From the IMG/VR virus record IMGVR_UViG_2534681604_000004: a stretch of DNA of 36,312 bases; one strand, 5' to 3'. The translations under genes were made by a program, and so were the position numbers. Shown here piece by piece: positions 3,335-36,312 of the stretch (positions within the stretch are counted from its first letter, which is position 1; every line of letters begins with the position of its first letter). The DNA is from a virus (lineage: Duplodnaviria > Heunggongvirae > Uroviricota > Caudoviricetes). The notes below the pieces were generated by a model. It searched no databases. It was given only the letters and a program-made list of their open reading frames with translations, and had not been told where the DNA came from.

Positions 3335-3341
3335 AAGGTAA
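3186..3341 (+). CDS. hok: Hok/Gef-family type I toxin, 51 aa
   Basis: Own translation MKQQKAMLIALIVICLTVIVTALVTRKDLCEVRIRTGQTEVTVFTAYESER, close to recalled Gef/HokC; GC hairpin GGCGGGGAGAGATCCCCGCC in the 3' UTR (3349-3368) in the position of a fold-back element. Confidence 0.85.
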   Translation: MKQQKAMLIALIVICLTVIVTALVTRKDLCEVRIRTGQTEVTVFTAYESER

Positions 3342-3413
3342 GAGACCTGGCGGGGAGAGATCCCCGCCACTCTTCGTGTGTCAGGTATCCTCAATGCACC
3401 CTTTCCTCTCCAA

Positions 3414-3440
3414 ATAAAAAAGCTCCCGAAGGAGCTTTAA
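3414..3440 (-). terminator. rho-independent terminator (AAAGCTCC CGAA GGAGCTTT; T-run on the minus strand)
   Basis: Perfect stem-loop followed on the minus strand by TTTTTATTT, immediately downstream of the minus-strand gene ending at 3458. Confidence 0.7.
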
Positions 3441-3457
3441 AATACAAGGGATGACTC

Positions 3458-3967: not shown

Positions 3968-3978
3968 ATAAAATCCTT

Positions 3979-4560: not shown

Positions 4561-4595
4561 TCAAGTTAAAGGCCGGAGTTCTCCGGCCTCCTCCC

Positions 4596-5411: not shown

Positions 5412-5420
5412 TGTATTCCC

Positions 5421-7010: not shown

Positions 7011-7070
7011 AACTTTCCCTGTTATGCGCCCCGCACGGGGGCGCTATGTTAAACGGAGAACTTCCCCTGA

Positions 7071-8798: not shown

Positions 8799-8925
8799 GG
8801 CACTTGTGTGAATCCCTTTTCGGAAGAGATTTTATTGAAAGTCACTTGTTGACTTTCTCGTGACAAGCAATTTTTTTATTTTTTTCGGGAGGAGGGGAGG
8901 AGGGTAAAATCCAAGGTGAAATCGT

Positions 8926-8998
8926 GGCGATTTCACCTTGAAATTTTAGAGCAATTTACTTTAAAAACAGTCTGTTAATAGTGAAATTTGAATGGCGA
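8926..8998 (-). other. parS: parS centromere-like partition site
   Basis: GTGAAATCGTGGCGATTTCAC box array, central AT-rich IHF-like region and distal TGAAAT/TGGCGA boxes, directly downstream of parB; matches recalled P1 parS. Confidence 0.85.
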
Positions 8999-9002
8999 AA
9001 GT

Positions 9003-10004
9003 TTAAGGCTTCGGCTTTTTATCGAGGCTCTTTCTAAGGATATGCCCAATCATCCTGTCGAGTTCTTCCTGTAACTCTTTTGAGAGTCGATTAAACTCAT
9101 AAGAAAATGCTCGGCCTTTCACGCGCTTCCTTGCAAAGCGATCCTTATCCTCAAATTTCCATAATTCAGTAACTACGGACTTATCTTTAGAACCTTTATC
9201 CGTGAGTAGTGAGGCTTCCTTTGTTATCAAGCGCAGGATTTTATTTTTAACTTCATCTTCGGCCATTTCTTCAATGGATAAGATGTCGTTTATTTCCGGG
9301 GATATGTTTTGAATAAGCTGATCAAACTCTAAATTCTTGTTCCCCATTTCGTCGCCAACAGCACAAAGCGTTTTGTAGTCCGAAAAGGTTAATTCCGACT
9401 GCACAGGGAAAAGGGCGACTAATTCTTCCGGAGCACTCGCTGCCTGGAGAGCACGCGTGACCTTCGCCTGAGACAGCCCTTCCTTGGCTGCAATATCCTT
9501 CTGACTCATCCCATCATTTTTCATTCGCATCAAACGCAGACCTATTTCTCGAATGCTGTGCTGCAATGCTGTCTGAACGTCTTTCGCTAAATTTTGCGCT
9601 TCCTGAACGCTGATCTCCTGGTCCGTGACTAAAACCCGCAACCCTACGTTCTCTAAGATGGCAGAAGCTCGACGCCGGGAACCATCCAAAATTTCAATTT
9701 TCCCTGTAACCCGTCTAACACCTATTGCAGGGTAAAATTGCTGATGCTTAATAGTGCTTCGGATACTTTTTAATGATTTTGGCGTAAGAGATGCCTGGTC
9801 ACGCCCGTTGTTATGCTGATCAACAAAGGTATCGCTTTCTACCTGGTTCGGAGGTATTACCTCTTCAATAAATGTGGCCTGGCGACCAGTTGATAACTTG
9901 AATACCTGCTCGACTCGATCGCCAGAGGCTGAAGAACTATCAAATCCGCTTAATATTGAAGGATTAAGGGTTCGCCCAATTGTTGGTCTGTTTTTCTTTG
10001 ACAT
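9003..10004 (-). CDS. parB: ParB partition protein, 333 aa
   Basis: Track ORF; sequence recognised as P1-type ParB; followed by parS. Confidence 0.93.
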   Translation of the reverse strand: MSKKNRPTIGRTLNPSILSGFDSSSASGDRVEQVFKLSTGRQATFIEEVIPPNQVESDTFVDQHNNGRDQASLTPKSLKSIRSTIKHQQFYPAIGVRRVTGKIEILDGSRRRASAILENVGLRVLVTDQEISVQEAQNLAKDVQTALQHSIREIGLRLMRMKNDGMSQKDIAAKEGLSQAKVTRALQAASAPEELVALFPVQSELTFSDYKTLCAVGDEMGNKNLEFDQLIQNISPEINDILSIEEMAEDEVKNKILRLITKEASLLTDKGSKDKSVVTELWKFEDKDRFARKRVKGRAFSYEFNRLSKELQEELDRMIGHILRKSLDKKPKP

Positions 10005-10020
10005 GGGGGTTTCTTACTCC

Positions 10021-11217
10021 TCAGTTAGATCTGATAAATTCAATACGGTCAAAAACTGCTTTAGCAAAATCTTCCGCGGCAATTCGCGCGTTCTTCAATG
10101 CATCAGCACTACCAACATACGTTGCCGGGTTAGCTGAAATAACAGTGTCAAAAGACTCGCCGCAACGTTCAAAACCGTCAAGGCGAGGGAGGACGACATC
10201 GAGCATATCCCCACCGAACACTTCTTTAGCCAGGCTATGGCAATACTTATGATCTGCCTTGTTACTCAACTTGGACATAAAACCAATGTTAGTCGCAAGC
10301 TGGCACTCGCAGCCTTCATCCGAAATGAGTTTCACCAACTCAGGAAGGCGGGCAACGTATTTAAGCGATGAGTGGAAATCGACAGTTGCTGGCGGCAGAG
10401 GTGTAAACAGTATATTGGCCGAGGCCAAAGCATTTTTCAGGAAGGCGTCAAGGTGAGGACCACTATCAACGAGGATAAAGTCATAATCGCTCTTCAGCTT
10501 ATCAATCACATTTTCTTTCAGGACAGCATGGATGTTCTGACCCGGTAGATGCTCATTGCACAGCTCTCTCCAATCGGATGCAATAAAGGCATCGTCAATC
10601 GACGCAGGCATAACGTCAACCCCAGGTACAACAGAAGGAACAATAAACTCCTCTAACAGCTCTTCACGGCTTACATTCTGCAACATAGCCTGTGCAGATG
10701 TTGCGTTTACGATACCAATAGAGTGTTTATGGCTTAAAAACATCGTTGCTGAAGATTGCGGATCAAGGTCAATAACCAGAATCCTTAAATCTTCCATCAG
10801 AAGATGAGGGTGGGCACGCATTGCATGCGCCAGAGAAACCGTCGATACAGTTTTTGACACACCGCCTTTAAGATTGGAGATGAAAATCACATACGCTTCG
10901 CTGTAGCGATCCCGGTATTTTGGCACTCCGCGATGTTCATATATGTCAATGATGTTCTGAATTGACATCGCATATTTCATTGAAGAGCCAGCAGGGCGTT
11001 TATCGAAAACATAACCCTTTTCTTCCATTTCACTCACGGCATAGTCAACGTTCGCTCGAGTCAGTAGAGGCAATTTTGCCAGTGCCGCTTTCGCATAGAC
11101 CTGGTAAAACTCGTTCGCGTGTAGCTCATCCTTTTGCAACTGTACTTGTTCAGTCAGAACATTGAGCATTCTGTTTGCTCTTTGAGCAACCTTGTGAAGC
11201 TGGCTGGAATCACTCAT
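10021..11217 (-). CDS. parA: ParA partition ATPase, 398 aa
   Basis: Track ORF; Walker A KGGVSKT; N-terminal extension typical of type Ia ParA; recognised as P1-type ParA. Confidence 0.93.
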   Translation of the reverse strand: MSDSSQLHKVAQRANRMLNVLTEQVQLQKDELHANEFYQVYAKAALAKLPLLTRANVDYAVSEMEEKGYVFDKRPAGSSMKYAMSIQNIIDIYEHRGVPKYRDRYSEAYVIFISNLKGGVSKTVSTVSLAHAMRAHPHLLMEDLRILVIDLDPQSSATMFLSHKHSIGIVNATSAQAMLQNVSREELLEEFIVPSVVPGVDVMPASIDDAFIASDWRELCNEHLPGQNIHAVLKENVIDKLKSDYDFILVDSGPHLDAFLKNALASANILFTPLPPATVDFHSSLKYVARLPELVKLISDEGCECQLATNIGFMSKLSNKADHKYCHSLAKEVFGGDMLDVVLPRLDGFERCGESFDTVISANPATYVGSADALKNARIAAEDFAKAVFDRIEFIRSN

Positions 11218-11385
11218 CGAAAGCCATCCTTTATGCTGTATTTTTGAATTTAATTAAAAATGCTGCATAAAATAATAATGTATGCGTAGATGCTTGTACA
11301 TAGCATTCTCTGCATGTTTGGTTCATTTTGCACGATTGAGAGTTACAAGGAGGGCACAAAAAAGCCCAGTTCAGGGGCATCAGTG

Positions 11386-12195
11386 TTATTTGCTAAGAGC
11401 AGCGAATAATCGTTCGAAATCGATAGTATCTATAGCACGCGTAAGCGCCGGAAGTTCAGCCTCAAAGTACCCGTGTCGATCGTAAAAGAAGGGACCGAAG
11501 AGCGAGGCATGTTGGATTCTACTTCGCCCCAGCCCGGACACACAGTTAAGCCCATTACCGGCTAAAAGGCTAAAAAACTTCTCTGGATTATCGTGGTAAA
11601 GCTGGGAATCAATGGTGGCGGTTAACTCTTCCATAGGGAAGCACACCCGCCTTGTCTCCCAGGGATATTTAGTCCGAAGCATAAACATTGCTTTCAGCAA
11701 TTCACATTGAGCACGGATCGCGTCCGGTTCATAGCCAGATATGGAGACATAAGCCACGTCCCTCATTCCTGCGTCATCTTTGAAAGTCACGATAGAAGTA
11801 ACATCCAGCTCTTTTTCGAAAGAGCGAGCAGCATCTACTGGACGCTGAAGTAAATCATTCGACTTAATGCGCTCTAGAATCCCTCCCCACATATCATTTA
11901 GATATTCGATATGAGCCAAAACCTTATCAAGACACTCTCGTGTAAACCATTCAGTATGCCCGCCACCGGCGCTTTTCTCCCACGGCGCATTCCAGGGGAA
12001 AAAGGTTGCGTGTAAAGCCCGCTCAAGATTAACTATTGCCAAACGCGTACCACGATAGACCCGTGAAAGCGCAAAATCGGGACTCACTTGTAGCCCTTTA
12101 AACCGTGCCAATGGACCACATGAAATGCCGATTTTAAAAGTATCTCCATTCTCCGGCACCAGAACGTAGAGGTAGTGTTGTTTCTCTTCTTGCAT
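11386..12195 (-). CDS. T5orf172 / GIY-YIG-like domain protein, 269 aa
   Basis: N-terminal YLYVLVPENGDTFKIGIS ... GGHTEWF resembles the KIG-x-T and TEWF signatures of the T5orf172 family; C-terminal 150 aa unassigned. Confidence 0.6.
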   Translation of the reverse strand: MQEEKQHYLYVLVPENGDTFKIGISCGPLARFKGLQVSPDFALSRVYRGTRLAIVNLERALHATFFPWNAPWEKSAGGGHTEWFTRECLDKVLAHIEYLNDMWGGILERIKSNDLLQRPVDAARSFEKELDVTSIVTFKDDAGMRDVAYVSISGYEPDAIRAQCELLKAMFMLRTKYPWETRRVCFPMEELTATIDSQLYHDNPEKFFSLLAGNGLNCVSGLGRSRIQHASLFGPFFYDRHGYFEAELPALTRAIDTIDFERLFAALSK

Positions 12196-12230
12196 ATCAA
12201 TACCACTGCTTGATGAGAACCGCGCAAATG

Positions 12231-12489
12231 TTGACTATGCGCGAAAGTTAATGTGAATAGTTGACTATGCGCGATGTGACTACAGTCAAAAGTTGACTGT
12301 AGTCGATTTAACTCCACCAAAGATCGACTATGTAAGATATTGTCGGGAGAAACGTTGACTATACGCGATGAAATGACCCTAAAAGCCATCTCAATAGCGA
12401 CTTGCAGAATATTGACGCCAGCAAAAATCCACCAGCGTCAACGAATGTCGCCTATAGTCAACTTCTCGCTATCGCATATAGTCAATATT
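12231..12489. repeat. iteron array downstream of repA (incA-like), about 6 copies of GTTGACTAT(G/A)CGCGA in both orientations
   Basis: Copies at about 12231, 12261, 12354 (direct) and 12450, 12471 (inverted), plus a 12-bp inverted repeat GACTACAGTCAA..TTGACTGTAGTC at 12276-12301. Confidence 0.75.
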
Positions 12490-13429
12490 ATGGATTGCGC
12501 TTATGGATCTGGAAGCCGATTTTCCTGCCGTTTTTTATCTCTGAAAATTTAAGATATTCAATAGCTTCCAAATCTTTCATGGCTTTTCTGATAACGCTAT
12601 TTTGCACGCTAACGGATGATTTGAGATTAAGCCTTGCTCTAAGGCGCTCAATGCTGACAGGTGCCGGGTTGGCGGGTAGAGCCTCAAAGAATGTATACAG
12701 TACCTTGGCCGTCTCTTTGCGCCCGAGCTTATCCAGCATCTTCAGCTTCAGGATTCGCTTATAGTCAACATAGTAAAGTTCAGATAGCTGTTTCTGCGGC
12801 TGGATCTCGATAACATCAAGCTCGGTATTCAGGCTGCTATATGCCAACAAGTTGACGTTAATGTTATTGAGATGACCTTTTGCCGCCGGGAAGCGGAATT
12901 TGACAACTGTCTGCTGAATGCGTGTCAGAGAGTCATCAATACTTTTACGGAACGCCTTTGAAAGGCGCTTACGTGGATAGCCGCATCGATCGGCAAACTC
13001 GGAGAATGGCAGGGTGATTATGCCGTCATCATCAGGTGCGTAGTCAAACAACGCGGAGGTTATGCCCACCCACACCTTAAAATCAGTATCCATATCCAGG
13101 CGTGGACCATGAATTTCAATTCCCTCATAGCCTTCCTGCTCAACAATTTTGAGGCTTGATAGTTCTTCGGTTGCGTTCGTTGTGTTTGTAGTAACTGACG
13201 ATCCGCGACGTAGTGCCACATTGGTAGATTTTAAGGTTGGCACAAACACACCTAAGCGCAACAAAGCGATGGGTTGTATAGTGCTATTGTTATTGGGTTT
13301 CAGGCTGTGGATTTCTCCTGTATTTCCTGCAACTTCTTCAACGCTAAGGAAGCCTTTATTTTCTTCCGGCATCGTGGTTTCTCCATATGTGGCGCGGCCT
13401 GGCGTCATCTGGATTGCAGTTATCAACAA
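12488..13429 (-). CDS. repA: RepA plasmid replication initiator (P1 / RepFIB-type), 313 aa from first Met
   Basis: Track ORF flanked by iteron arrays on both sides; QPIALLRLGVFVP motif recalled from P1-type RepA; true start may be an internal Met at 13408 or 13372. Confidence 0.8.
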   Translation of the reverse strand: MLITAIQMTPGRATYGETTMPEENKGFLSVEEVAGNTGEIHSLKPNNNSTIQPIALLRLGVFVPTLKSTNVALRRGSSVTTNTTNATEELSSLKIVEQEGYEGIEIHGPRLDMDTDFKVWVGITSALFDYAPDDDGIITLPFSEFADRCGYPRKRLSKAFRKSIDDSLTRIQQTVVKFRFPAAKGHLNNINVNLLAYSSLNTELDVIEIQPQKQLSELYYVDYKRILKLKMLDKLGRKETAKVLYTFFEALPANPAPVSIERLRARLNLKSSVSVQNSVIRKAMKDLEAIEYLKFSEIKNGRKIGFQIHKRNP

Positions 13430-13450
13430 CTGTGAATAGTCAGGCTCTAA

Positions 13451-13555
13451 AATCGCGTACAGTCAATGTTTCTGTCGCGTATAGTCAACAATAAATCGCG
13501 TGCAGTCAACAATAAATCGTGCACAGTCAACATAAAATCGCGTATAGTCAATGTT
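13451..13555. repeat. five direct iterons upstream of repA (incC-like / oriR core), ATCGCGTATAGTCAA(C/T)
   Basis: Five copies at about 21-bp spacing starting 13451, 13475, 13494, 13515, 13537. Confidence 0.8.
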
Positions 13556-13592
13556 CATCCCATTTCAGGCCAGAAATGGCGCGGCTTACAGC

Positions 13593-13663
13593 GATCCGGG
13601 ATCTTCTTTGGATCTTCCTAGGTTCTCTTTAGGATCTGTTTATTGGATCTATGCTGTGGATAA
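13593..13663. promoter_or_regulatory. origin-associated GATC cluster (5 GATC in 57 bp) plus DnaA box TGTGGATAA
   Basis: GATC at 13593, 13600, 13611, 13633, 13646; DnaA box at 13655-13663; same order as the recalled P1 oriR (DnaA box, GATC region, iterons, repA). Confidence 0.65.
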
Positions 13664-13706
13664 GTTGAATAAACCGGCCAACAAAGCCGGTTGGAAGGAA
13701 GCCATA

Positions 13707-14099
13707 TTATTCTACGCTTTCGATGAGAAGACCATGTTCATAACATTTAAGCTCATCGCCTTCATACAGGAATTGGTATCCAACACCACCACCTTCCGGC
13801 ACATTAGGGAATAAATCATCACTTACCGAAGAACAAATCACACCAATGCAGCGATCAACACCTTCTCGTTCTTCAGTGCTGAAAAAATCCTCTTCAATAA
13901 GCACTTGATTACATTGCTCATCAGCATAAGTTGGAAATACATGTTCGATACAATCTGGATGTTTTAAACCAAGCTGATCGGCAAGCTCGAAAGCATGACG
14001 GTATTGTTCAGATCCTGGCTTGCCAACAGTGATTTGCTCAATTTTGTAGATTGAAGTCGCTTTGTTGATAGTTTGCTTTACTGTTACTTTATCAGACAT
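13707..14099 (-). CDS. hypothetical protein, 130 aa
   Basis: Track ORF; first gene beyond the origin, last of a five-gene minus-strand operon. Confidence 0.45.
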   Translation of the reverse strand: MSDKVTVKQTINKATSIYKIEQITVGKPGSEQYRHAFELADQLGLKHPDCIEHVFPTYADEQCNQVLIEEDFFSTEEREGVDRCIGVICSSVSDDLFPNVPEGGGVGYQFLYEGDELKCYEHGLLIESVE

Positions 14100-14110
14100 A
14101 AAAATCCCTT

Positions 14111-14443
14111 TTAGTTACTGCTGATAGCGCGGTTGTAATCATTAACGTTGCGATTCTTCCTGTTAATCCCCATCAGCATCGTTTCTGTATCAAGGATATA
14201 GGCTGGCAGATCATCAAAATATTCACTGCTAAACTCTGGCATCCTGCACATAAATGCACTTTTGGGGGCAGGGTGGTTAACCTTTGTCGGCGTCGGCGTT
14301 AAATTCGCTGATCGACTCCCGGAGCAACCGCTGAGTGTCAGCAGGAATACGCTGGCGAACATTACCCGCCGCAACCAGTTGTTTCTGAACTTCAGCTTTT
14401 CGTTCCATTTGTCTGTCTGCATACTTCGCTTGTTCTGATTCAT
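14111..14443 (-). CDS. lipoprotein, o-spanin-like (Rz1-like), start partly embedded in the upstream ORF
   Basis: Lipobox LLTLSGC followed by Pro/Thr-rich TPTPTKVNHPAPK; overlaps 14277-14699 by 167 nt in a different frame. Confidence 0.5.
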   Translation of the reverse strand: MNQNKRSMQTDKWNEKLKFRNNWLRRVMFASVFLLTLSGCSGSRSANLTPTPTKVNHPAPKSAFMCRMPEFSSEYFDDLPAYILDTETMLMGINRKNRNVNDYNRAISSN

Positions 14444-14699
14444 TTTTCACTTCCTGGCTGTGAAAATGTTGATCCGCTCTATTCATCGTCTCAATGGTTT
14501 GGTTAAGATCAATGATTGACTTATCGCGCTCCTTAACAGCCTGATCAAGGCTGCCAATTTTCTCCAAGGCTTGCTTTAACTGATAACGTTCCCATGCAAA
14601 CCCAGCACCAACAAGTGCGCAAATCAGGACAAGAACACCAGTAACAGCAAGTTTCTCCTTCAAAGACAAAGCTGTTTTTAACGTTGAAAAAAACGACAT
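14277..14699 (-). CDS. membrane-anchored coiled-coil protein, i-spanin-like (Rz-like), 140 aa
   Basis: N-terminal TM helix LAVTGVLVLICALVGAGFAW, then charged helical periplasmic region; overlaps the lipoprotein ORF. Confidence 0.5.
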   Translation of the reverse strand: MSFFSTLKTALSLKEKLAVTGVLVLICALVGAGFAWERYQLKQALEKIGSLDQAVKERDKSIIDLNQTIETMNRADQHFHSQEVKNESEQAKYADRQMERKAEVQKQLVAAGNVRQRIPADTQRLLRESISEFNADADKG

Positions 14700-14738
14700 T
14701 TCTTCCTCCTGAAGAAAAATTATCTGTGAAGTCCTTTG

Positions 14739-15527
14739 TTAAAGTGTCGCCTTGTTTAATTCATCAAGAACAGAATCAGGAACCAAAGCTGCGACTGCGC
14801 TGGCGGTGCTGGCCTTATTTGCTGATGCTTCCGCCAGCGCGGTTCCGATAGCATGGTTATAAGCAGTTATGGCTACGCTGGCGCTTTCCTTCGCTCGTTC
14901 ATACTGCTGTTGCAATGCTGCTACCGGTACTGTTGTCTGGTCGAAAAAAGCACCAAATTGTTCAGTTGCTTCCTTCAGTGCTTCAACTTGTTGTTCTGTC
15001 AGTGATGGTGGGGGAGTGACTGCGCCACCACCGGAATCAGAGCCTGACGAGCTTCCTGAGCCTGTGTTAAGGGTCTGGTTAATGTCCCCCATAGCAGCGA
15101 CTAAACTCGACGTATTAAGCGCATTTACAGCGTCCTCAAGCGATTTCGTTGTAGTCGCGTCGCCAATGGCAATAGAGATCGGCAGTTCTGAAACTTCTCG
15201 CTCATTAGCACGACAGTAAACATTCCAACCAATATCGAGTTGAAGGAGCATTGACAGATCAGCATAACCAGCCAACAGGTCCGCGTGCTGAGTTGCCAGC
15301 CCTCCAATATTCGTTAAACCGGTTGCGGTTGTTCTGATCGTTGAAACATAGCTGGTAATAGTGTTGGGATAGACAATTGTATCCAGAATTAATCCGGTCA
15401 ATTCTTCTGCAAGCAGTTTTGCTGTGTTAGCACTGTTTCGTGCCGATGTTATGGCACCAGGTGTTTTCATCCCACCGGCGGCGGCCAATTTTTTATATGC
15501 GGATAACTGGTAGTCTTTTTCCAGCAT
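14739..15527 (-). CDS. hypothetical protein with Ser/Gly-rich linker, about 262 aa from internal start
   Basis: Track ORF trimmed to the Met preceded by AGGAG at 5-nt spacing (start codon 15527-15525). Confidence 0.5.
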   Translation of the reverse strand: MLEKDYQLSAYKKLAAAGGMKTPGAITSARNSANTAKLLAEELTGLILDTIVYPNTITSYVSTIRTTATGLTNIGGLATQHADLLAGYADLSMLLQLDIGWNVYCRANEREVSELPISIAIGDATTTKSLEDAVNALNTSSLVAAMGDINQTLNTGSGSSSGSDSGGGAVTPPPSLTEQQVEALKEATEQFGAFFDQTTVPVAALQQQYERAKESASVAITAYNHAIGTALAEASANKASTASAVAALVPDSVLDELNKATL

Positions 15528-15535
15528 GATATCTC

Positions 15536-15820
15536 CTAACTTACCTGAACCAGGCCGTCTCCGGCTGCAACGGTAGAGCCGCATGAAACAGGATCACCAA
15601 CGCATACGATCCCTTTCCCGTTGACGGTAAACCATGCCCTGGTTGATATAGCTTGCCCGACGTGCGTGCTGTTCCCATCGGTATGCTGTGCATATTGCTT
15701 ACCATCAACTAACACTTCGACTCCGTTGACTTTAAGTAGTGGTTCGCTCTCTACGGGAGGCCTGGATGGGAATCCTCCGTGCCCCGAACAAATGCTGTCT
15801 TTTGTTGCAATACTCGCCAC
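15536..15820 (-). CDS. PAAR-like repeat protein (putative spike-tip protein), 94 aa
   Basis: Gly-rich repeats SGHGGFP / VNGVEV / VNGKGIVCVGDPVSCG resemble the PAAR fold signature. Confidence 0.55.
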   Translation of the reverse strand: MASIATKDSICSGHGGFPSRPPVESEPLLKVNGVEVLVDGKQYAQHTDGNSTHVGQAISTRAWFTVNGKGIVCVGDPVSCGSTVAAGDGLVQVS

Positions 15821-15901
15821 ATCACCACCAATTGTTTGCTCTGATTTTTGTTATTTTAACTTAGGTTGTTTGTGGTCTACATGGCGTTTACTTATTATAA
15901 A

Positions 15902-15918
15902 ATTGCTCTAATAAATAT
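15902..15918 (+). promoter_or_regulatory. C1-repressor operator-like site in a divergent promoter region (ATTGCTCTAATAAATAT)
   Basis: 16/17 match to recalled C1 operator consensus. Confidence 0.6.
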
Positions 15919-15989
15919 TGTTTTTTGTGTCGTGTTTTCGGTACCATTCAGCCATCGCCCTTCAATGGGCATTTGTTTGGAGTCGTCAG

Positions 15990-16274
15990 ATGCAGATGGA
16001 GCTAATAAGCCGCAAAGAGTTCGATAGCCGTGTAACCAGCGGTGAACTCGACAACTTGCAGGCTATTAAGGTGAAAGAAGGCTTTTGCCTCATTGGGAAT
16101 CAGAGCGGAACAAATCGCGTTTTTATGCTTCGCCGTACGGATTTGAAGCCATTTGTCTGGAAGAACGAAATTGGTCCCAGCTCATACGCTCAAACGAGGG
16201 GGTGCCACAACCTGGCATTTTTCTACAAAGACGAGCTTTCTGTGGTTGATATTCAAGGGTTACAACATGTTTAA
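15990..16274 (+). CDS. small protein upstream of hrdC, about 94 aa
   Basis: Internal ATG with GGAG RBS in track ORF 15918-16274; position fits recalled P1 uhr. Confidence 0.4.
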
Positions 16275-30323: not shown

Positions 30324-30340
30324 AAAATTATTAGTGCAAT
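30324..30340 (-). promoter_or_regulatory. C1-operator-like site, reverse orientation (minus strand reads ATTGCACTAATAATTTT)
   Basis: 15/17 match to recalled consensus, in a divergent promoter region. Confidence 0.35.
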
Positions 30341-30397
30341 TTTGATTGTGAAATGTATCATTCTGCCCTTAAGTAGGTTCTTCACGAGGAAACAAAA

Positions 30398-30643
30398 TTG
30401 GCAGAACGTGTTGATGATGCAGAGCTGAGCATGAATCAGTTAGAAGCTCTCAAAGACATGGCCATCGATAACATCAGAAAGCAGGCACAGGTCGTGAGCC
30501 AGGTATTTACAGGGAAGTGTCGTTACTGCAATGAATCGATTGAATCAGGCATTTATTGTGACGCTGAATGTGCTCAATGGCACAGGGAAGAGCAGGCAGC
30601 AAAACAGCGTAAATATGGCATGCGACCGGCAGGATTTGACTGA
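30398..30643 (+). CDS. TraR/DksA-family C4 zinc-finger protein, 81 aa
   Basis: CRYCNESIESGIYCDAEC resembles the phage TraR-like zinc finger. Confidence 0.55.
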   Translation: MAERVDDAELSMNQLEALKDMAIDNIRKQAQVVSQVFTGKCRYCNESIESGIYCDAECAQWHREEQAAKQRKYGMRPAGFD

Positions 30644-30645
30644 TT

Positions 30646-31209
30646 ATGTTGCGCTTTACTGAGGAAGAGTTTCAGGCTTTTAGTGAGCGTCGAAATAAGG
30701 GGCGGTCCAGGCCAAAAACCAAAAAGGATCCATTCTTATCGCTTGCGCCGGTAAAAGAAGTTTCTCCACATGCGAAGGCACTTGCAGCACTGGCAAAGAA
30801 CCCAGACCTGCGCGACGGAAATTGCGAGCACTTCGAGCAGGTTTTCATTTTTGATTACTTCGAACGCAAGCACCCTGACATCTATGAGCTGTTGCATGCA
30901 ACGCCTAACGGAGGGAAACGTTCAAAAGCAACCGCCGGGAAAATGAAGGCTGAAGGGCAGAAAAAAGGTTATCCGGACATGAGTCTCGATAAAGCATGCG
31001 GTATTTATCACGGCATGCGAATTGAGCTTAAAGAACCAAATGGTAAAGCTCCGAAGAAAGAGCAGATCGCCTGGATGCGCAGGCTTAGAGAGGAAGGTTA
31101 CTACGTCGTTCTTGCGTATGGTGCAGAACAAGCGATAACCGCCATCCTGGAATACATGAGCCTTAAAAAGGGTGAGGCTATTGAGCATGTATTGAACAGT
31201 GACAAGTAG
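30646..31209 (+). CDS. VRR-NUC domain nuclease-like protein, 187 aa
   Basis: KKGYPDMSLD...GMRIELKEP...YYVVLAYG fits the VRR-NUC G-x-PD ... E-x-K pattern. Confidence 0.6.
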   Translation: MLRFTEEEFQAFSERRNKGRSRPKTKKDPFLSLAPVKEVSPHAKALAALAKNPDLRDGNCEHFEQVFIFDYFERKHPDIYELLHATPNGGKRSKATAGKMKAEGQKKGYPDMSLDKACGIYHGMRIELKEPNGKAPKKEQIAWMRRLREEGYYVVLAYGAEQAITAILEYMSLKKGEAIEHVLNSDK

Positions 31210-31387
31210 TTGTACACTACGTGAAATAATAAATTAATTAGTGCATATGTGTTCTTTGATACAGCGCACATTAACATCGGGAGAATAATCGTGTCATCCA
31301 AGGCTAATTATGAATCGCTGGCATCGATCATGCCGCGTAATGAACAGGAAGCAGATGCTGTAGTGGACCCGGTAATCGCTGAAATGA

Positions 31388-32050
31388 ATGCTCGCCTGGA
31401 GGCTGAATTTGCAGCTGAGAATGAACATACCACCCAGGGCGACTAGGACTGTTTTTTGTGTCGGTAGCGGTCCGTCACTCACTCGTGAGGACTGTGCTGC
31501 TATAGAAAAAACTGGCTGTTCAATCATCGCGGTTAACAATTCCTGGCAGATGTTCGATGACATTTATGCCTTATACGCCGGTGATTTGTCATGGTGGAAG
31601 CAATACGGATCCACCATACCGGGAGGGAGATTCCGCAAAGTGACAGCCAACCTGGCGGCGGCGAAATCATTTTCGTTGGAGTACAGGCGATATTGTGGAC
31701 CGGCGGAAGGGGTAAATAGCGGCGCGCAGGCTATCAGTCTGGCGGCTGAATCAGGGGCTGAAGTAGTGGTATTAGTCGGCTATGACTGTTCTCTGCAAAA
31801 CGGCCTTCATTGGCATGGCGCGCACCCTCAAGCACTACGGAATCCAACGCAGGTGTCTATTTCAAAATGGCAACAGCAGTTCCTGGATACCCGCAAAAAA
31901 CACGCAGATTTACATATTTTGAATGCAAGTAGGAGCAGTGCAATTCAATGTTTCCCAAGAATAAATTTAGAGGCAGTGATCGCGTTATTATCGTCGGCAG
32001 TGGCCCAAGCGCCGCAAACTTTGTTGCGCCGCGCGGAGTGCCGATTATAG
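31388..32050 (+). CDS. Rossmann-like protein with GSGPS motif (paralog A), 220 aa
   Basis: CVGSGPSL ... IIAVNNSW ... NSGAQAISLA ... VVLVGYD; paralogous to the next ORF. Confidence 0.55.
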   Translation: MLAWRLNLQLRMNIPPRATRTVFCVGSGPSLTREDCAAIEKTGCSIIAVNNSWQMFDDIYALYAGDLSWWKQYGSTIPGGRFRKVTANLAAAKSFSLEYRRYCGPAEGVNSGAQAISLAAESGAEVVVLVGYDCSLQNGLHWHGAHPQALRNPTQVSISKWQQQFLDTRKKHADLHILNASRSSAIQCFPRINLEAVIALLSSAVAQAPQTLLRRAECRL

Positions 32051-32574
32051 CGGTCAATGGGGCCATCGACTGGCTGAACCGCGCTTCTTATTTTTTCACA
32101 CTTGATCCATCGCCAGACAATATGCGGCGCGTTGGTCGTGGCCGCCGTCGCCGTGGTGTTTGTTATTGCATGGCACTACCCGATGTTAAAGAACGTGAAG
32201 TCAGAGATGGCGTTCTGTGCTTCCGTCGTGTGGCTGAACGCGGCACAGAGCCAAAAAATACGAATTCTCCCGAGTGGTGGGCGTGGCGCTGGTCCGCACA
32301 TTTCGGCCTTTGCGAAGATGAGAATGAAATTGCCAGCGGCAATAGTGCATATGGTGCTCTGAACCTGGCTTTCCATATCGGATTCAAACATGTCGCCCTG
32401 GTGGGCGTTGACGCTACACAAGAACCACGCGTTCACTCCGGCGGCACGCCAAAAAATCTAAGTCACCTGCCTTTGTTATTCCAGTCTGCGCGTGAACGGA
32501 TTGACGTTGTTTCATGCGGGGAAATGGGAGGTATTCCGCAGATGACTCTTAAAGAATGGCTGAAGAATACATGA
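31948..32574 (+). CDS. Rossmann-like protein with GSGPS motif (paralog B), 208 aa
   Basis: IVGSGPSA ... IIAVNGA ... [10 protein letters not shown] ... ALVGVD; stop overlaps the ppp start (ATGATG). Confidence 0.55.
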
Positions 32575-33248
32575 TGGCACCCACAATTTATCACCGTATC
32601 GACGGTACCAAATACAGGAATGTCTGGGTTGTTGGTGATCTGCATGGTTGCTACACCAGACTGATGTCCGAACTCCATCGTGTGGATTTTGACCCGGCGC
32701 AGGATTTACTGATATCGGTCGGCGACCTTATCGATCGCGGTACTGAAAATGTCGAATGTCTGGAACTATTGCAGATGCCCTGGTTCAGGGCAGTGATGGG
32801 GAACCATGAGCGGCTGATGATTGATGCGTTAAGTCCTGATGGCAACGTGAATAACTGGCTAATGAATGGCGGACAATGGTTCTTCATGCTGGACACTGAT
32901 CAGGAAATATTAGCCAGGGCGCTGGTGGAGCTGGTAAAGCGTCTGCCCTATATCATTGAGTTGAACACCGGGCAAGAAACTATCGTTATAGCCCATGCCG
33001 ACTATCCGGATAATGAATACCAATTCGGTAAGGAGGTGCCGCTTTTCAACGTTGTCTGGGCGCGCGAGCGTATCAGTGATTCGATGGATGATATTGGTGG
33101 CGAAATTTCGGGCGCAGATCGTTTTATCTTTGGTCACACTCCGGTGAAAAGCCCGAAGACATTCTGGAATCAGCATTATATAGACACTGGTGCCGTATTT
33201 TGCGGAAACCTGACATTGATGAAAGTGAAAGGTGATGGTGCAGCATGA
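32571..33248 (+). CDS. ppp: Ser/Thr protein phosphatase, lambda-PPase / PrpA family, about 225 aa
   Basis: GDLHGCY, GDLIDRG, GNHE and near-collinear similarity to recalled lambda phosphatase. Confidence 0.9.
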
Positions 33249-33946
33249 AGATTGCTTTAGTTCTTCGCTCTGGTGGTGACTATTACGCTTCCGATGTGCA
33301 GTGGCTGGTTAATCAACTGCCAAAAGGCTATGAAATTATTTGCCTGACAGACCTGAAGCGTTTACATGTACCTAGCGTCAAAGTTGTCCCATTGATCAAC
33401 CAGTGGCAAAAGTGCCGTGGCTGGTGGGCGAAAATCGAGTTGTTCCGACCGGATATAACCGATGATCTGTTCTATCTGGATTTGGACACGGTTATTGCCG
33501 GTGATATACGCCCAATCCTTGAGAATCCACCAACCAGCTTCACCATGCTTAGGGATTTTTACCATCCACAATATCGTGGTAGCGGTGCCCTGTGGATACC
33601 AAATAGTGTAAAAGCGCATATCTGGAGTGCATTCTGGCAAGATCCGGAAGGTTGGATTGCTCGTTGTGTTACTACTGAATGCTGGGGTGATCAGGGGTTT
33701 TTGCGGAAGGTTATGGGTGATGATACACCAGCATTTCAGGATCTGTATCCGGGATGGTTTGTAAGTTACAAGGCCGATGTTGTGAAACCTGGTTCGAAAT
33801 ATGCGAGCGCGCGTTACTCCAGGGGGAATGGGGCATTACCAAAAGACTGCCGAATAATCTTTTTTCACGGCAAACCGCGACCTCGCGAAGTGTCAGAGGA
33901 TTGGCTTCCCCTTATCAGCTCATTTTTTGAGCGAGAATCAGAATAA
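33245..33946 (+). CDS. hypothetical protein with DxD-like motif ([11 protein letters not shown]), 233 aa
   Basis: ATG overlaps the ppp stop (ATGA). Confidence 0.5.
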
Positions 33947-33947
33947 T

Positions 33948-33964
33948 ATTGCTCTAATAATTCC
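33948..33964 (+). promoter_or_regulatory. C1-operator-like site (ATTGCTCTAATAATTCC)
   Basis: 13/17 match (first 13 positions) to recalled consensus; paired with an inverted copy 37 bp away. Confidence 0.5.
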
Positions 33965-33972
33965 ATATTTTT

Positions 33973-34000
33973 AAAACGTGATGTACACTCATCACGTTTT
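33973..34000. terminator. bidirectional terminator hairpin (AAAACGTGATG TACACT CATCACGTTTT) flanked by inverted operator-like sites
   Basis: 11-bp perfect stem with A/T runs. Confidence 0.6.
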
Positions 34001-34013
34001 TTATTAGAGCAAT
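33997..34013 (-). promoter_or_regulatory. C1-operator-like site, inverted copy (TTATTAGAGCAAT on plus strand)
   Basis: Reverse complement ATTGCTCTAATAAAAAA. Confidence 0.5.
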
Positions 34014-34027
34014 CTACAAGGTGCACT

Positions 34028-34246
34028 ATGTGGCCATTCCGACGGAAATATCACTACTGGCTGATCGCCTTTGTTACGCCGTCCGGCGATATCAGGCATG
34101 TCATCACCAGGTATCGCAACAAGAGACTCACCTTAGCCAGAATTTTACAGGCTGCCATAGGTGAGGGACTGGATACAAATTGCGTAGTCCTTCCTCCTTC
34201 ATACTTAGGAAAAATGACCGAAGCACAAGCTAATACGGAACTTTGA
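34028..34246 (+). CDS. small hypothetical protein, 72 aa
   Basis: Track ORF immediately downstream of the operator pair. Confidence 0.4.
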   Translation: MWPFRRKYHYWLIAFVTPSGDIRHVITRYRNKRLTLARILQAAIGEGLDTNCVVLPPSYLGKMTEAQANTEL

Positions 34247-34247
34247 A

Positions 34248-35510
34248 ATGAGCACTTCAGCACAAAACCAATCAATCGAAAATGTATCTATCCCTGACGT
34301 CCTGAATGCCGGTATCCCGGCCATTATCCAGAACATCCGGGCCGCGCAACGCCGCGTTAGTTGTGATGACCTCACAGCACGTTTTTTTGATAATGCGGTT
34401 CAGTCAGCGGAGATGCTTCACGCACAGCTTATTGATGTTTATAACGCAGAAGCTGATAGCCATAACTCCCTGGTAGATGCAGCTGAAAATATGCAGTTGG
34501 ATCTCGGTCTGAAGGGTAAAGAAATTGAAGAGCTTCAGCTGGAAATTGAACATTTGAAACGCCAGCAACAGGACGCGATCGACGATGCGACGCATGACGC
34601 CAACCAGCGTGCTGATAATGCCGAACGTATAAGCATTGAGCTGGAAACAAAACTCAATGAAATGACCGCGATGGTTGAACTGCGGAACTCACAGATTTCA
34701 ACGCTAAAATCTCAATATAAAGAGATCATGAAACTTGATCCTTTTAACCTTGAGAAACGCTATAACAAAGCTAAAAGCGAGCGACAGGAACTGCGTAAGC
34801 AGGTCGCCGATCTTAACCAACAGCTCAAAAAAACTATTAAAGATGCAAGCGAAGCGCGCGTGGCATTTGCTAATAAAAAAGCAGAGGTTACCGCGCTGGT
34901 TAATGAGAATGCCAAATTTGCGACGCTCAAGAAGGAAATGTATGGCATTACTGAGCGCCGTTTCCCTGCAAGCAAACTTCATCCGACGTTAGGGCAAATC
35001 TCCTTCTTCCCGCGCCTCCTGGCTTATGGGATCTCATCGCCTAAAGAGTTCAATAACGAGCGTCCTTATATCGTTTCTAAGCTGGACTTTGCTTATCAGT
35101 TCTGCTGCGACATGGGCTATGCCATTGATATCCGAATCAACGAATGGTTGATGCCAAACTTCCAGCCGTTGGCCATTTTCCGCGAGTTCCAGCCGGAAGG
35201 TTGGGTAGAGTTCTTCCATGAAATGATCTGTAAAGAGATGGAAAGCCGCCGCCCGGAACTGGTCCGCCGTGTCGAGTGGGCGCAAGAGGTTATGTTGGCA
35301 GATGCAGAGCTACCGTTCGAACCGGAATTCATTGATGAACTGGCCAATAAAGGGCTGCATAGCCTATTTGATGTAGTTACCCGCCGTCATGAGCAGTTGG
35401 TTGTTGAATTGGGTTTAGAAGAAACTGCGGCAAGAAGACTTCTCGATGTTTGCTATGCACGTAGCGATGCATGGGAAAAAGAGAACGGCGGTACTATTTA
35501 CGTTCGCTGA
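34248..35510 (+). CDS. coiled-coil protein with conserved-looking C-terminal globular domain, 420 aa
   Basis: Track ORF; central heptad-like region (residues about 80-220). Confidence 0.55.
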   Translation: MSTSAQNQSIENVSIPDVLNAGIPAIIQNIRAAQRRVSCDDLTARFFDNAVQSAEMLHAQLIDVYNAEADSHNSLVDAAENMQLDLGLKGKEIEELQLEIEHLKRQQQDAIDDATHDANQRADNAERISIELETKLNEMTAMVELRNSQISTLKSQYKEIMKLDPFNLEKRYNKAKSERQELRKQVADLNQQLKKTIKDASEARVAFANKKAEVTALVNENAKFATLKKEMYGITERRFPASKLHPTLGQISFFPRLLAYGISSPKEFNNERPYIVSKLDFAYQFCCDMGYAIDIRINEWLMPNFQPLAIFREFQPEGWVEFFHEMICKEMESRRPELVRRVEWAQEVMLADAELPFEPEFIDELANKGLHSLFDVVTRRHEQLVVELGLEETAARRLLDVCYARSDAWEKENGGTIYVR

Positions 35511-35530
35511 TAGTTACAGTGTCACTTTTA

Positions 35531-35565
35531 ATGCTGGTGGAGTGCGTCCCACCAGCATTTTTTTC
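35531..35565 (+). terminator. rho-independent terminator (GCTGGTGG AGTGCGTC CCACCAGC then ATTTTTTT)
   Basis: Stem-loop plus T-run. Confidence 0.7.
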
Positions 35566-35583
35566 GTCCAATGAGGAGGGCAT

Positions 35584-35868
35584 TTGAGTATTTTCAACCA
35601 ACACGCACACCATGAACGTCCGTATATCGTCATAGTTGATATTGATGGAACAATATCAGAGGCAACTGAAGACAGACTGCATTTGCTTCCGCCACCAGGT
35701 AAAGGTGCATTAACAAAGGACTGGAACGAGTTTAATCTCGCCTGTGACACTGATACTCCCATAACTCCAGTTATTGATATTGTGCGCCAGTTGTCCAGCA
35801 TTTACACGCTCTGGTTTGTAACCGGGCGCTGTGAGATAGCCAGGGATAAAACACGAGCCTGGTTGCGT
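35584..35868 (+). pseudogene. HAD-superfamily phosphatase-like gene, 3' end truncated by IS1 insertion
   Basis: TTG start with GAGGAGGG RBS; motif I VIVDIDGTI; reading frame runs straight into the IS1 terminal repeat at 35869. Confidence 0.6.
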
Positions 35869-36312
35869 GGTAATGACTCCAACTTATTGATAGTGTTTTA
35901 TGTTCAGATAATGCCCGATGACTTTGTCATGCAGCTCCACCGATTTTGAGAACGACAGCGACTTCCGTCCCAGCCGTGCCAGGTGCTGCCTCAGATTCAG
36001 GTTATGCCGCTCAATTCGCTGCGTATATCGCTTGCTGATTACGTGCAGCTTTCCCTTCAGGCGGGATTCATACAGCGGCCAGCCATCCGTCATTCATATC
36101 ACCACGTCAAAGGGTGACAGCAGGCTCATAAGACGCCCCAGCGTCGCCATAGTGCGTTCACCGAATACGTGCGCAACAACCGTCTTCCGGAGCCTGTCAT
36201 ACGCGTAAAACAGCCAGCGCTGGCGCGATTTAGCCCCGACGTATCCCCACTGTTCGTCCATTTCCGCGCAGACGATGACGTCACTGCCCGGCTGTATGCG
36301 CGAGGTTACCGA
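35869..36312 (-). mobile_element. IS1-family insertion sequence, partial copy, inverted relative to the copy at 1-424
   Basis: Begins with GGTAATGACTCCAACTTATTGATAGTG; reverse complement is identical to window positions 1-424 wherever the two overlap. Confidence 0.92.
35884..36093 (-). CDS. insB: IS1 InsB transposase C-terminal fragment
   Basis: Track ORF identical in protein sequence to 200-409. Confidence 0.8.

Follow-up and report, generated by a model that had tools for sequence, protein, structure and literature searches.

The P1 proteins PmgO, PmgP and PmgQ form one conserved functional unit, which optionally includes a methyltransferase or extra glycosyltransferases and from which the phosphatase Ppp is absent. 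Our best explanation, to which we give a probability of roughly 45%, is that this cassette is a protein glycosylation system that in phages acts on virion proteins; phages with the cassette may give their own proteins a coat of sugars. P1 is a classic model phage, and the four genes of the pmgO-pmgP-ppp-pmgQ stretch have carried the label 'putative morphogenetic function' since the genome was annotated. Recognizing pmgO-pmgP-pmgQ as one conserved, fusion-linked transferase cassette turns a placeholder into a testable hypothesis, and P1 deletion mutants, virion preparations and a proteomic workflow already exist.

The DNA analyzed here (the window) is a viral sequence of 36,312 nucleotides that is 98-99% identical to phage P1 (98.4% in the colinear alignment by which the P1 annotation was carried onto it); its PmgO is 100% identical to the P1 counterpart. 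The stretch described in the initial annotation corresponds to P1 genes pmgO, pmgP, ppp and pmgQ, and the coordinates given there for the open reading frames were correct. Together with pmgN these genes constitute pmgN-pmgO-pmgP-ppp-pmgQ, a C1-repressed lytic operon of a P1-like phage-plasmid (Table 1).

Table 1. Genes and control elements in and around the pmgN-pmgQ operon, in window coordinates.
Feature	Position	Strand	Description
LPpmgL	~30291-30309		P1 late promoter, mapped from P1 annotation
O26/Op82	30324..30340	-	C1 operator in the divergent pmgL/gene 26 control region; two mismatches to consensus
pmgL	30398..30643	+	81 aa, DksA/TraR-like C4 zinc finger; PHROG 54, E 1.6e-12; outside conserved cassette
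pmgM	30646..31209	+	VRR-NUC/resolvase-like nuclease; PHROG 5702 (resolvase), E 1.2e-26; outside conserved cassette
PpmgN	-35 at 31192-31197, -10 at 31213-31218		Predicted promoter, P1 record; overlapped by Oppp
Oppp (Op83)	31231..31247	-	C1 operator, P1 annotation via 98.4% alignment; window sequence AAATTAATTAGTGCATA
pmgN	31291..31446	+	51 aa; P1-like-specific; PHROG 2350, function-unknown category
pmgO	31388..32050	+	220 aa; predicted DUF115/MptE-like, GT42-like glycosyltransferase-fold protein, paralogue 1
pmgP	31948..32574	+	208 aa; predicted DUF115/MptE-like, GT42-like glycosyltransferase-fold protein, paralogue 2
ppp	32556 (or 32571)..33248	+	Lambda-type Ser/Thr metallophosphatase
pmgQ	33245..33946	+	233 aa; predicted divergent GT8-like glycosyltransferase (GT-A fold, retaining-type family)
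OpmgRa	33948-33964	+	C1 operator, operator scan and P1 record
OpmgRb	33997-34013	-	C1 operator, operator scan and P1 record

The genes of the operon overlap, by 59 nt between pmgN and pmgO and by 103 nt between pmgO and pmgP. Translation of pmgO could start at ATG 31388 or ATG 31421; homologues show no conservation of the ~20 N-terminal and ~18 C-terminal residues of its product. Read by eye, the sequence has AGGAG 12 nt before the pmgP start, a likely ribosome-binding site. ATGA coupling had been proposed on both sides of ppp. This is the case for ppp and pmgQ, which overlap at 33245-33248. The pmgP/ppp ATGA also exists (32571-32574); in the P1 record, however, ppp begins further upstream, at ATG 32556, and shares 19 nt with pmgP. 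The two genes overlap with either start. We also considered a programmed -1 frameshift joining PmgO to PmgP, as the 103-nt overlap contains two X_XXY_YYZ heptamers (chance expectation ~13%). This candidate was rejected; the heptamers are not kept in relatives, and the shift would remove the conserved C-terminal LExxL helix of PmgO. As for the genes upstream, the TraR-like zinc finger named in the initial annotation was recovered in PmgL, whereas the VRR-NUC assignment of PmgM was recovered only in part: its score against Pfam VRR_NUC (21.3 bits) is just under the 23.8-bit cut-off, and it has a resolvase PHROG match. Neither gene is linked to the cassette outside P1-like phages.

A scan of the window for C1 operators gave 7 matches, compared with 0.14 expected by chance. 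At OpmgRa and OpmgRb the unit ends and the pmgR-pmgS unit begins. Oppp was absent from the scan because up to three mismatches were allowed and a hand count of Oppp gave four mismatches to the C1 consensus. From its position over PpmgN, Oppp would keep the operon repressed in lysogens. Since a scan of the + strand of the region yielded no consensus promoter, the promoter positions are those of the P1 record only.

Profile searches and structure prediction had been suggested in the initial annotation as checks on these proteins, and they point to a DUF115/MptE/GT42-type fold for PmgO and PmgP and to a GT8-like enzyme for PmgQ. The translation of PmgO contains the motifs VGSGPS, IIAVN, NSGAQAISLA and LVGYD, the last of which has LVGVD as its counterpart in PmgP. 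Pairwise BLASTP gave a weak match between the two proteins (E 0.004 over 36 residues). When the family profiles were aligned with hhalign, leaving out the O-P fusion sequence, the match reached 98% probability and E 2.2e-13 over 164 columns, so the paralogy is far beyond chance. That the two adjacent genes are paralogues with common motifs, as originally proposed, was therefore upheld, and from the profiles they are true but distant paralogues.

PmgO and PmgP were each modeled separately; in a joint MAFFT alignment with the fusion protein P0051, single-domain proteins were stacked on its PmgP half. Both models were confident, and their best structural matches were Maf (5mu5), MptE (8sd5) and the Campylobacter sialyltransferase Cst-I. 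The predicted fold matches the DUF115/GT42 type seen in these three proteins, and the models share the fold of the solved PF01973 members, Maf and MptE. A BFVD fold search matched only unannotated phage relatives. The sequences themselves matched Cst-I/II and Maf weakly, in the G-x-G-P-S and S-G...G-x-D motifs, and did not match the kinases. Scores against Pfam PF01973, MptE-like (DUF115), were 23.4 bits for PmgO and 21 bits for PmgP, both below the gathering threshold of 34.6, which was passed only by the O-P fusion P0051 (44.6 bits); each of the 50 PmgP homologues gave some match to this model within E 1, the lowest E being 8.6e-7. Profile searches against GT42 Cst-I/II were not significant (E 0.07-0.66, split over two short motifs), and the PmgP profile alone did not match GT42 sialyltransferases. 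Nevertheless, the CMP-sugar binding motifs (G-N-G-P-S loop, S/T-S-G and G-x-D) lie at equivalent positions and are invariant in both the PmgO and PmgP families. Of the conserved histidines, H141 and H143 of PmgO and H173 of PmgP, none was assigned as the counterpart of the GT42 catalytic histidine. Invariant aspartates are D66 and D133 of PmgO and D53 and D155 of PmgP. The two proteins probably form a heterodimer.

Their known relatives differ in several respects. Maf is a multi-domain protein of 632 residues, with extra domains thought to bind flagellin; in contrast, PmgO and PmgP are bare, paired cores of ~190 aa within proteins of 208-220 aa, and they align only to the central Maf domain (163/632 residues). 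The C. jejuni GT42 enzymes Cst-I and Cst-II (PDB 2p56 and 1ro7) have the fold in common with PmgO and PmgP, but the sialic acid pathway is absent from the phage here and from K-12; the GT42 label in databases is a fold-level transfer and not evidence for a sialyltransferase. E. coli K-12 is not known to make CMP-sialic acid or pseudaminic or legionaminic acid donors. Whether the cassette acts on virions or on lipopolysaccharide (LPS), PmgO/PmgP would represent the sialyltransferase/Maf fold in a minimal form that is probably a heterodimer.

The DxD-like motif noted earlier in the 233-aa PmgQ was confirmed as LDLDTV, in which D79 and D81 are invariant in 62 homologues. Near the C-terminus the motif HGKPRP contains H208, G209, P211 and P213, all nearly invariant. 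Searches of Pfam and NCBIfam with PmgQ reached no family at E up to 1. It belongs to PHROG 1962 (glycosyltransferase), and its profile matched the PDB sequences of AgtA (6mw5, E 1.4e-7), GlyE (5gvv, E 7e-5) and glycogenin (E ~1e-4). With hhalign, PmgQ aligned to E. coli WaaJ over the DxD and H-x-G-x-x-KPW region, where WaaJ has YLDADVV and HYTGATKPW; the GT8 tryptophan is not kept in P1 PmgQ. The DxD and the C-terminal H-x-G-x-x-K-P are common to PmgQ and the GT8 enzymes glycogenin, AgtA, GlyE and WaaJ/WaaO, although PmgQ is shorter (~200-235 aa). These alignments indicate that PmgQ is a divergent family 8 (GT8) glycosyltransferase with a DxD motif.

Our initial query of IMG/VR gave only P1-like contigs, and the scan was rerun with a non-P1 alignment. 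The cassette family comprises ~660 clusters at 50% identity, and PmgO, PmgP and PmgQ co-occur in unrelated prophages. By our own tally, PmgQ was found alongside PmgP in all 17 non-P1 lineages whose contig was long enough, and PmgO was present in 13 of 20. Natural fusions link the proteins in several arrangements: PmgO-PmgP (P0051), PmgP-PmgQ (P0299 and P0365), PmgQ-PmgP (P0382) and PmgQ-PmgP-methyltransferase (P0348). A cassette can have as many as five glycosyltransferase genes, or can include a SAM methyltransferase, a composition that fits stepwise assembly of a glycan.

The cassette lies in late/structural operons of myo-, sipho- and podovirus-type phages. Six HK97-like prophage lineages (L094, L108/L121, L109, L114, L115 and L127) carry it directly after the major capsid gene and before the head-completion genes. 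Elsewhere it follows TerL or portal, lies between the lysis and terminase genes, or comes right after the antiterminator Q, always in the late region. In P1 it is situated between the baseplate genes and the head-completion gene pmgR, with the late promoter LPpmgL upstream. The phages concerned have unrelated capsid families (P1 gp23, PF05065, PF03864 and PF25209). Ser/Gly-rich C-terminal tails of the capsid proteins beside the cassette were considered as acceptor tags and gave no distinguishing signal; they are uninformative because similar tails occur in HK97-type capsids generally. On two chromosomal islands, in Pseudescherichia and Serratia, the three genes are interleaved with or beside genes for Big_1 (Ig-like) surface proteins, including an 1166-aa inverse-autotransporter invasin. 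A Big_1 model built from these adhesin islands found no such domain in the window or in the phage loci.

According to the protein glycosylation explanation, three soluble enzymes would build a short glycan on protein acceptors in the cytoplasm late in infection, the acceptors in phages being virion structural proteins of the head or tail. The sugar transferred by PmgO/PmgP would be a CMP-activated ulosonic acid, with CMP-Kdo as the donor, and the one added by PmgQ an alpha-linked hexose taken from a UDP-sugar; phages with additional glycosyltransferases or an O-methyltransferase would use these to extend or tailor the glycan. GT42/DUF115-type transferases use CMP-activated ulosonic acid donors. 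As no nonulosonic-acid biosynthesis gene was found among the annotated cassette neighbors, CMP-Kdo would be the obvious donor; it is the only one of this type known to be made by all hosts of these phages, E. coli K-12 among them.

We judge the placement of the cassette inside virion-assembly operons to be the most informative clue to the acceptor. The six lineages with the cassette behind the capsid gene, the other late-region sites and the Big_1 islands all favor protein or virion acceptors. In addition, flagellin glycosyltransferase is the annotated role of Maf, the closest structural relative, and AgtA, GlyE and glycogenin, among the GT8 matches of PmgQ, act on proteins. A precedent exists for virion acceptors. 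Two reports relate that transferases encoded by mycobacteriophages (Che8 and relatives; work of Freeman et al. 2023) glycosylate capsid and tail-tube subunits (PMC11256854, PMC12619734), and the transferase genes of a cluster F1 mycobacteriophage are near the right genome end (PMC11256854). Both systems have phage-encoded transferases, and the PmgOPQ cassette lies in or near structural genes and includes methyltransferases in some phages; the mycobacteriophage hosts, however, are Actinobacteria. Mycobacteriophage virion glycosylation is the functional analogy for our explanation. Should virions prove to be the target, mycobacteriophages would not be alone in having glycan coats, which would matter for how the immune system recognizes therapeutic phages and for the stability and adsorption of particles.

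Several observations weigh against virion acceptors. The P1 virion proteome paper never mentions glycosylation, and no P1 virion glycan has been reported. Knock-outs and CRISPRi knock-downs of pmgO, pmgP, ppp and pmgQ in P1 plate normally, so any virion modification would be dispensable in the laboratory. The spread across unrelated capsid families is easier to reconcile with a host-wide target than with one specific acceptor in the capsid, and sites beside lysis genes or after Q are classic cargo ('moron') positions. Nor did the capsid tails or the search for Big_1 domains in the phage loci and the window point to an acceptor. We know of no precedent for protein glycosylation with Kdo. The most specific version of our explanation is that P1 and many other tailed phages of Gram-negative bacteria use a PmgO/PmgP heterodimer and PmgQ to decorate virion proteins with a short Kdo-containing, sometimes O-methylated glycan, and that some enterobacteria recruited the cassette to glycosylate Big_1 adhesins. 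We offer this version as a speculation that is doubtful in its full detail. If true, phages of Gram-negative hosts would have their first example of virion glycosylation, and CMP-Kdo would for the first time be a donor for protein glycosylation.

The main rival explanation, which we consider rather unlikely, is that the cassette remodels LPS (Kdo/core) or another envelope or lipid-linked glycan during lytic growth, for example by adding Kdo and a hexose. Such a change could shorten or hide the phage receptor, help particles leave the cell, or keep progeny from sticking to debris, and would be a new cytoplasmic route by which phages edit their receptor. The P1 receptor is the LPS core, and CMP-Kdo as the obvious donor would also suit this explanation. 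Among bacterial GT8 enzymes, the best known are those that act on the LPS core, and one of them, WaaJ, can be aligned with PmgQ across the DxD and KPW motifs. All 24 named genomes with relatives (Proteobacteria, Sinomicrobium and Longimicrobiales) belong to what we take to be Gram-negative (diderm) lineages, and the portability of the cassette among phages with unrelated capsids also agrees with this explanation. WaaZ, the Kdo III transferase of E. coli K-12, uses CMP-Kdo, the donor proposed for PmgO/PmgP, and is weakly similar in profile to PmgP (E 2.4e-4, 44%) and PmgO (E 5e-4, 31%) over the C-terminal half, including the motif A..A...AY.L....I...G.D. However, at 31-44% probability and with the N-terminal halves unaligned, this similarity is under any reliable threshold, a lead rather than a match, and WaaS showed no similarity. 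Location within head-gene blocks in six lineages and the association with Big_1 adhesins in chromosomes also argue against LPS as the target. Moreover, the P1 cassette is C1-repressed and therefore cannot act by lysogenic conversion, LPS made late would presumably be a small share of the existing surface, and known phage LPS-modifying systems are membrane proteins encoded near attachment sites or tail-spike genes.

A cytoplasmic host protein, rather than virion proteins, might instead be glycosylated for take-over or anti-defense. The enzymes, read by eye, appear to lack signal peptides and membrane segments, the C1-controlled sigma-70 promoter in P1 means that the unit can be expressed early after induction, and portability across phages suggests a conserved host target. 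Outside P1, however, the cassette is everywhere in the late/structural region and not among early genes, the defense-system models gave no match, and no phenotype was seen on laboratory strains; we regard a host target as improbable. It is more improbable still that PmgO and PmgP are pyrophosphokinases of the MptE/thiamine pyrophosphokinase type whose substrate would be a small molecule or modified nucleotide, that Ppp is the phosphatase working against them and that PmgQ glycosylates what they make. MptE (6-hydroxymethyl-7,8-dihydropterin pyrophosphokinase, 8sd5) and thiamine pyrophosphokinases catalyze pyrophosphoryl transfer from ATP, but neither has a sequence-level match to PmgO or PmgP, whose matches are to sialyltransferases and Maf. 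The constant and fusion partners in their genomes are glycosyltransferases and methyltransferases, genes of pterin, thiamine or nucleotide pathways do not occur with the cassette, and Ppp is missing outside P1-like phages. Glycosylation of phage DNA (hypermodified bases) we consider very improbable indeed. P1 DNA is ordinary apart from methylation. Several DNA methyltransferases are encoded upstream of the cassette in the Citrobacter prophage L110, and phage GT-A enzymes related to WaaJ/WaaO are reported to glycosylate 5-hydroxymethylcytosine in DNA (bioRxiv 10.1101/2023.12.21.572611). However, DNA-glycosylation pathways adjoin a C5-methyltransferase and 5mYOX dioxygenase, or a ThyS-type hydroxymethylase (bioRxiv 10.1101/2023.12.21.572611), and no enzymes that generate 5-hydroxymethylpyrimidines are encoded beside the cassette, either in P1 or in the related loci that were annotated, including the head-module loci. 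Of the 'nucleotide or sugar modification module' suggested originally, the sugar-transferase part stands; a nucleotide or DNA target is unlikely, and the module as drawn was not supported. The paralogues did not fall into virion-assembly families lacking enzymatic motifs, and the cassette is nonetheless placed inside virion-assembly operons.

The phosphatase, in particular, does not belong to the conserved unit. Ppp matches Pfam Metallophos (E 7.3e-16) and contains the motifs VGDLHG, GDLIDRG and GNHE; its match to NCBIfam PRK11439 (E 6.5e-83, 278 bits) is under the equivalog cut-off of 326. The P1 record lists Ppp as 64% identical to the lambda phosphatase. We found ppp with the cassette only in P1-like phages; it was missing from all non-P1-like cassettes, which have a methyltransferase or a further (fourth) glycosyltransferase in the slot between pmgP and pmgQ. 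We conclude that Ppp is a P1-lineage insert in a variable slot, where it would be either an accessory tailoring enzyme or an unrelated passenger.

The initial annotation had described two adjacent paralogues sharing several motifs, among them GSGPS, that are coupled through ATGA overlaps to a phosphatase gene (ppp) and a gene for a DxD-motif protein, and had proposed a nucleotide or sugar modification module. This observation was confirmed. The shared motifs were found in the sequences of both PmgO and PmgP, ppp and pmgQ overlap by ATGA at 33245-33248, and D79 and D81 of PmgQ are invariant in 62 homologues. An ATGA also exists between pmgP and ppp at 32571-32574, but the annotated P1 ppp start lies 15 nt upstream. 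PmgL, encoded upstream, matches the DksA/TraR-like zinc-finger family as claimed. The proposed VRR-NUC nuclease, PmgM, matched that family just below threshold and also matches a resolvase family. The sugar modification module was right at the level of fold but wrongly delimited; the phosphatase, zinc finger and nuclease lie outside the conserved system.

Features of the pmg region and its surroundings (window coordinates)
Feature	Coordinates	Remarks
pmgL (zinc finger)		upstream of pmgO
pmgM (VRR-NUC)	30646-31209	upstream of pmgO
Oppp (C1 operator)	31231-31247
pmgN	31291-31446	51 codons; precedes pmgO, overlapping it by 59 nt
pmgO	31388-32050	P1 counterpart
pmgP	31948-32574	P1 counterpart
ppp	32556 or 32571-33248	P1 counterpart
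pmgQ	33245-33946	P1 counterpart
pap	35584-36312	region of pap and of the IS1 end that breaks it at 35868
IS1 InsB-like ORFs	35884-36261	minus strand

Pairwise BLASTP between PmgO and PmgP was marginal (E 0.004). Profiles built from 34 PmgO and 50 PmgP homologues aligned over 164 columns with 98% probability (E 2.2e-13); the two are genuine but ancient paralogues with approximately 23% identity. AlphaFold models of both were confident (pLDDT 87 for PmgO and 95 for PmgP). PmgO, PmgP and all 50 PmgP homologues gave sub-threshold matches to Pfam MptE-like (DUF115). Sub-threshold PDB matches in the profile search were the Campylobacter GT42 sialyltransferases Cst-I/II and the flagellin glycosyltransferase Maf, the matching segments being the G-x-G-P-S loop and the S-G...G-x-D motif; MptE and the thiamine pyrophosphokinases were absent from these matches. 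An exhaustive profile search recovered 660 clusters (50% identity), most of which are stand-alone proteins about 200 aa long, and BFVD contained many unannotated phage relatives. The PmgQ profile matched GT8 enzymes (AgtA, E 1.4e-7; GlyE and glycogenin, about 1e-4), and PmgQ aligned with E. coli WaaJ over the DxD and H-x-G-x-x-KP motifs. Because PHROGs and RefSeq already label PmgO 'alpha-2,3-sialyltransferase' and PmgQ 'glycosyltransferase', the fold-level assignment is not new. Ppp belongs to the standard lambda-type metallophosphatases.

To define the conserved unit, ORFs in related loci were labelled using profiles of the PmgO, PmgP and PmgQ families. By our tally, PmgQ accompanied PmgP in 17 of 17 non-P1 lineages in which the contig reached far enough, and PmgO was present in 13 of 20. 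The hosts include Pseudomonas, Ochrobactrum, Zhongshania, Alloalcanivorax, Commensalibacter, Brevundimonas, a Methylophilaceae bacterium, Sinomicrobium and a Longimicrobiales bacterium. Among the loci compared, ppp was restricted to P1-like genomes (L084-L086, L136, L137, L153, L161 and L183). In L122, a contig of 101.8 kb that encodes distant homologues of PmgR and PmgS, PmgP is followed directly by PmgQ. Elsewhere the slot between them holds a SAM methyltransferase (L094, L100, L112 and L127), a fourth GT-A-type transferase (L095, L097, L124, L126 and L129) or two extra transferases (L120). Natural fusions join PmgO-PmgP (P0051), PmgP-PmgQ (P0299 and P0365), PmgQ-PmgP (P0382) and PmgQ-PmgP-methyltransferase (P0348); P0383 combines PmgP with an N-terminal region that, identified by eye only, resembles a methyltransferase.

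Within the 103-nt pmgO/pmgP overlap (31948-32050), two heptamers of the form X_XXY_YYZ are in frame with pmgO, TTTCCCA at 31951 and AAATTTA at 31963, and the product of a −1 frameshift fusing PmgO to PmgP would resemble P0051. We rejected this candidate: the heptamers probably reflect chance (about 13% expectation), they are not conserved, and the shift would delete a conserved helix.

Phage-borne cassettes were always situated in late or morphogenetic regions, with two chromosomal exceptions. In six HK97-like prophage lineages (L094, L108/L121, L109, L114, L115 and L127) the cassette lies directly 3′ of the major capsid gene and 5′ of the head-completion genes. It follows the large terminase in L095, lies downstream of portal in L098 (as do distant relatives in L103-L107), is flanked by lysis genes and terminase in L110, L112 and L119, directly follows the lysis genes in L003, and in L120 and L129 comes immediately after the gene for antiterminator Q. 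In P1 it separates baseplate gene 26 from pmgR, which is needed for head completion. In five Pseudescherichia/Enterobacteriaceae genomes (L088-L092, about 200-16000), the three transferase genes are interleaved with genes for a 1166-aa inverse-autotransporter invasin with seven Big_1 domains and further Big_1 proteins. In Serratia plymuthica (L116, 2674-5115), PmgO adjoins two Big_1 proteins, each about 296 aa long and lacking an obvious signal peptide, and PmgQ and PmgP are 4 kb away beside phage lysis gene remnants. A Pantoea-type chromosome carries a PmgQ homologue alone.

The L120 (8486-11498) and L129 (6471-9468) loci, from lambdoid prophages, are enlarged cassettes that encode five transferases: PmgO, PmgP, one of the PHROG 8858 type, one of the fourth GT-A family, and PmgQ. 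They occupy the interval from Q to the lysis genes, where Stx phages have their Shiga toxin genes. Two Rhizobiales prophage loci (L104, 6617-7669; L106, 6188-7375) have a gene for a distant PmgO relative downstream of both portal and a gene for a possible fibre-like acceptor, a protein with a CBM_5_12 carbohydrate-binding module in L104 and one with collagen triple-helix repeats in L106. The portal protein (Phage_portal_3) of a Sphingomonadaceae prophage (L107, 4362-6221) ends in an Acb1 anti-CBASS phosphodiesterase domain (E 6e-42), and thus an anti-defence enzyme would be fused to a virion protein.

We propose, with a probability of roughly 45%, that the cassette glycosylates proteins, in phages likely those of the virion. 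The enzymes would assemble a short, sometimes methylated glycan stepwise, which fits the presence of more than one transferase, the optional methyltransferases, the fusions and the constancy of the pairing. Protein acceptors are suggested by the location among virion genes, the link to Ig-like surface proteins and Maf as closest structural relative. The precedent is mycobacteriophages, whose virion protein glycosylation is reported second-hand in PMC11256854 and PMC12619734. CMP-Kdo would be the obvious donor candidate, since enzymes of this fold family use ulosonic acids activated with CMP, the cassette is not accompanied by genes for nonulosonate synthesis and all named hosts are Gram-negative. 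In the literature searched, neither the cassette nor glycosylation of virions of phages that infect Gram-negative bacteria was described. We regard the cassette as a hitherto undescribed variant among phage-encoded glycosylation systems, with a candidate donor and candidate acceptors; it is widespread, is found within structural operons and is directly testable in P1.

The same facts also support the main alternative, in which the enzymes would remodel the LPS core or a different envelope glycan, as do the GT8-WaaJ resemblance of PmgQ, a weak resemblance to WaaZ and the portability of the cassette among phages with unrelated capsids; we regard this alternative as unlikely. Other readings are less likely than LPS remodelling: a host protein as the target is improbable, a pyrophosphokinase-type function is slightly more doubtful still, and glycosylation of DNA is very improbable. 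None of the defence-system models matched the cassette.

According to deletion and CRISPRi studies, neither plaque formation nor antirestriction requires pmgO, pmgP, ppp or pmgQ. None of the four products is mentioned as a virion protein in the consulted text of the P1 proteome study, as expected for enzymes. Reports on pmgN conflict, CRISPRi knock-down lowering plating about 100-fold whereas deletion reportedly did no harm (PMC10695390); polarity does not explain this conflict because all of the genes downstream are dispensable.

The P1 record assigns the unit its own sigma-70 promoter, overlapped by Oppp, with a late promoter (LPpmgL) farther upstream and two operators for the C1 repressor immediately 3′ of pmgQ. 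The operators flanking the unit were recovered in the window at 30324, 33948 and 33997, as part of the 7 matches that a consensus scan of the window gave versus 0.14 expected by chance. From this arrangement, the operon is therefore off in the lysogen and on during lytic growth. Other strong matches (0-2 mismatches) occur at 947, 15902, 20447 and 20458, the last two forming an overlapping inverted pair.

P1 is colinear with window positions 26300-35867 at 98.4% identity in the alignment, and 19 P1-like phage records match the 4-kb region around pmgO-pmgQ at 95-99%. PmgO matches its P1 counterpart at every residue, and there are 4 differences in PmgP, 3 in Ppp and 8 in PmgQ. The pmgM DNA is colinear, and its reading frame has 187 codons versus 192 in P1, such that the window protein stops sooner than the reference. 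Colinearity ends within P1 pap, which encodes a HAD/polynucleotide-kinase-phosphatase-like 'acid phosphatase'.
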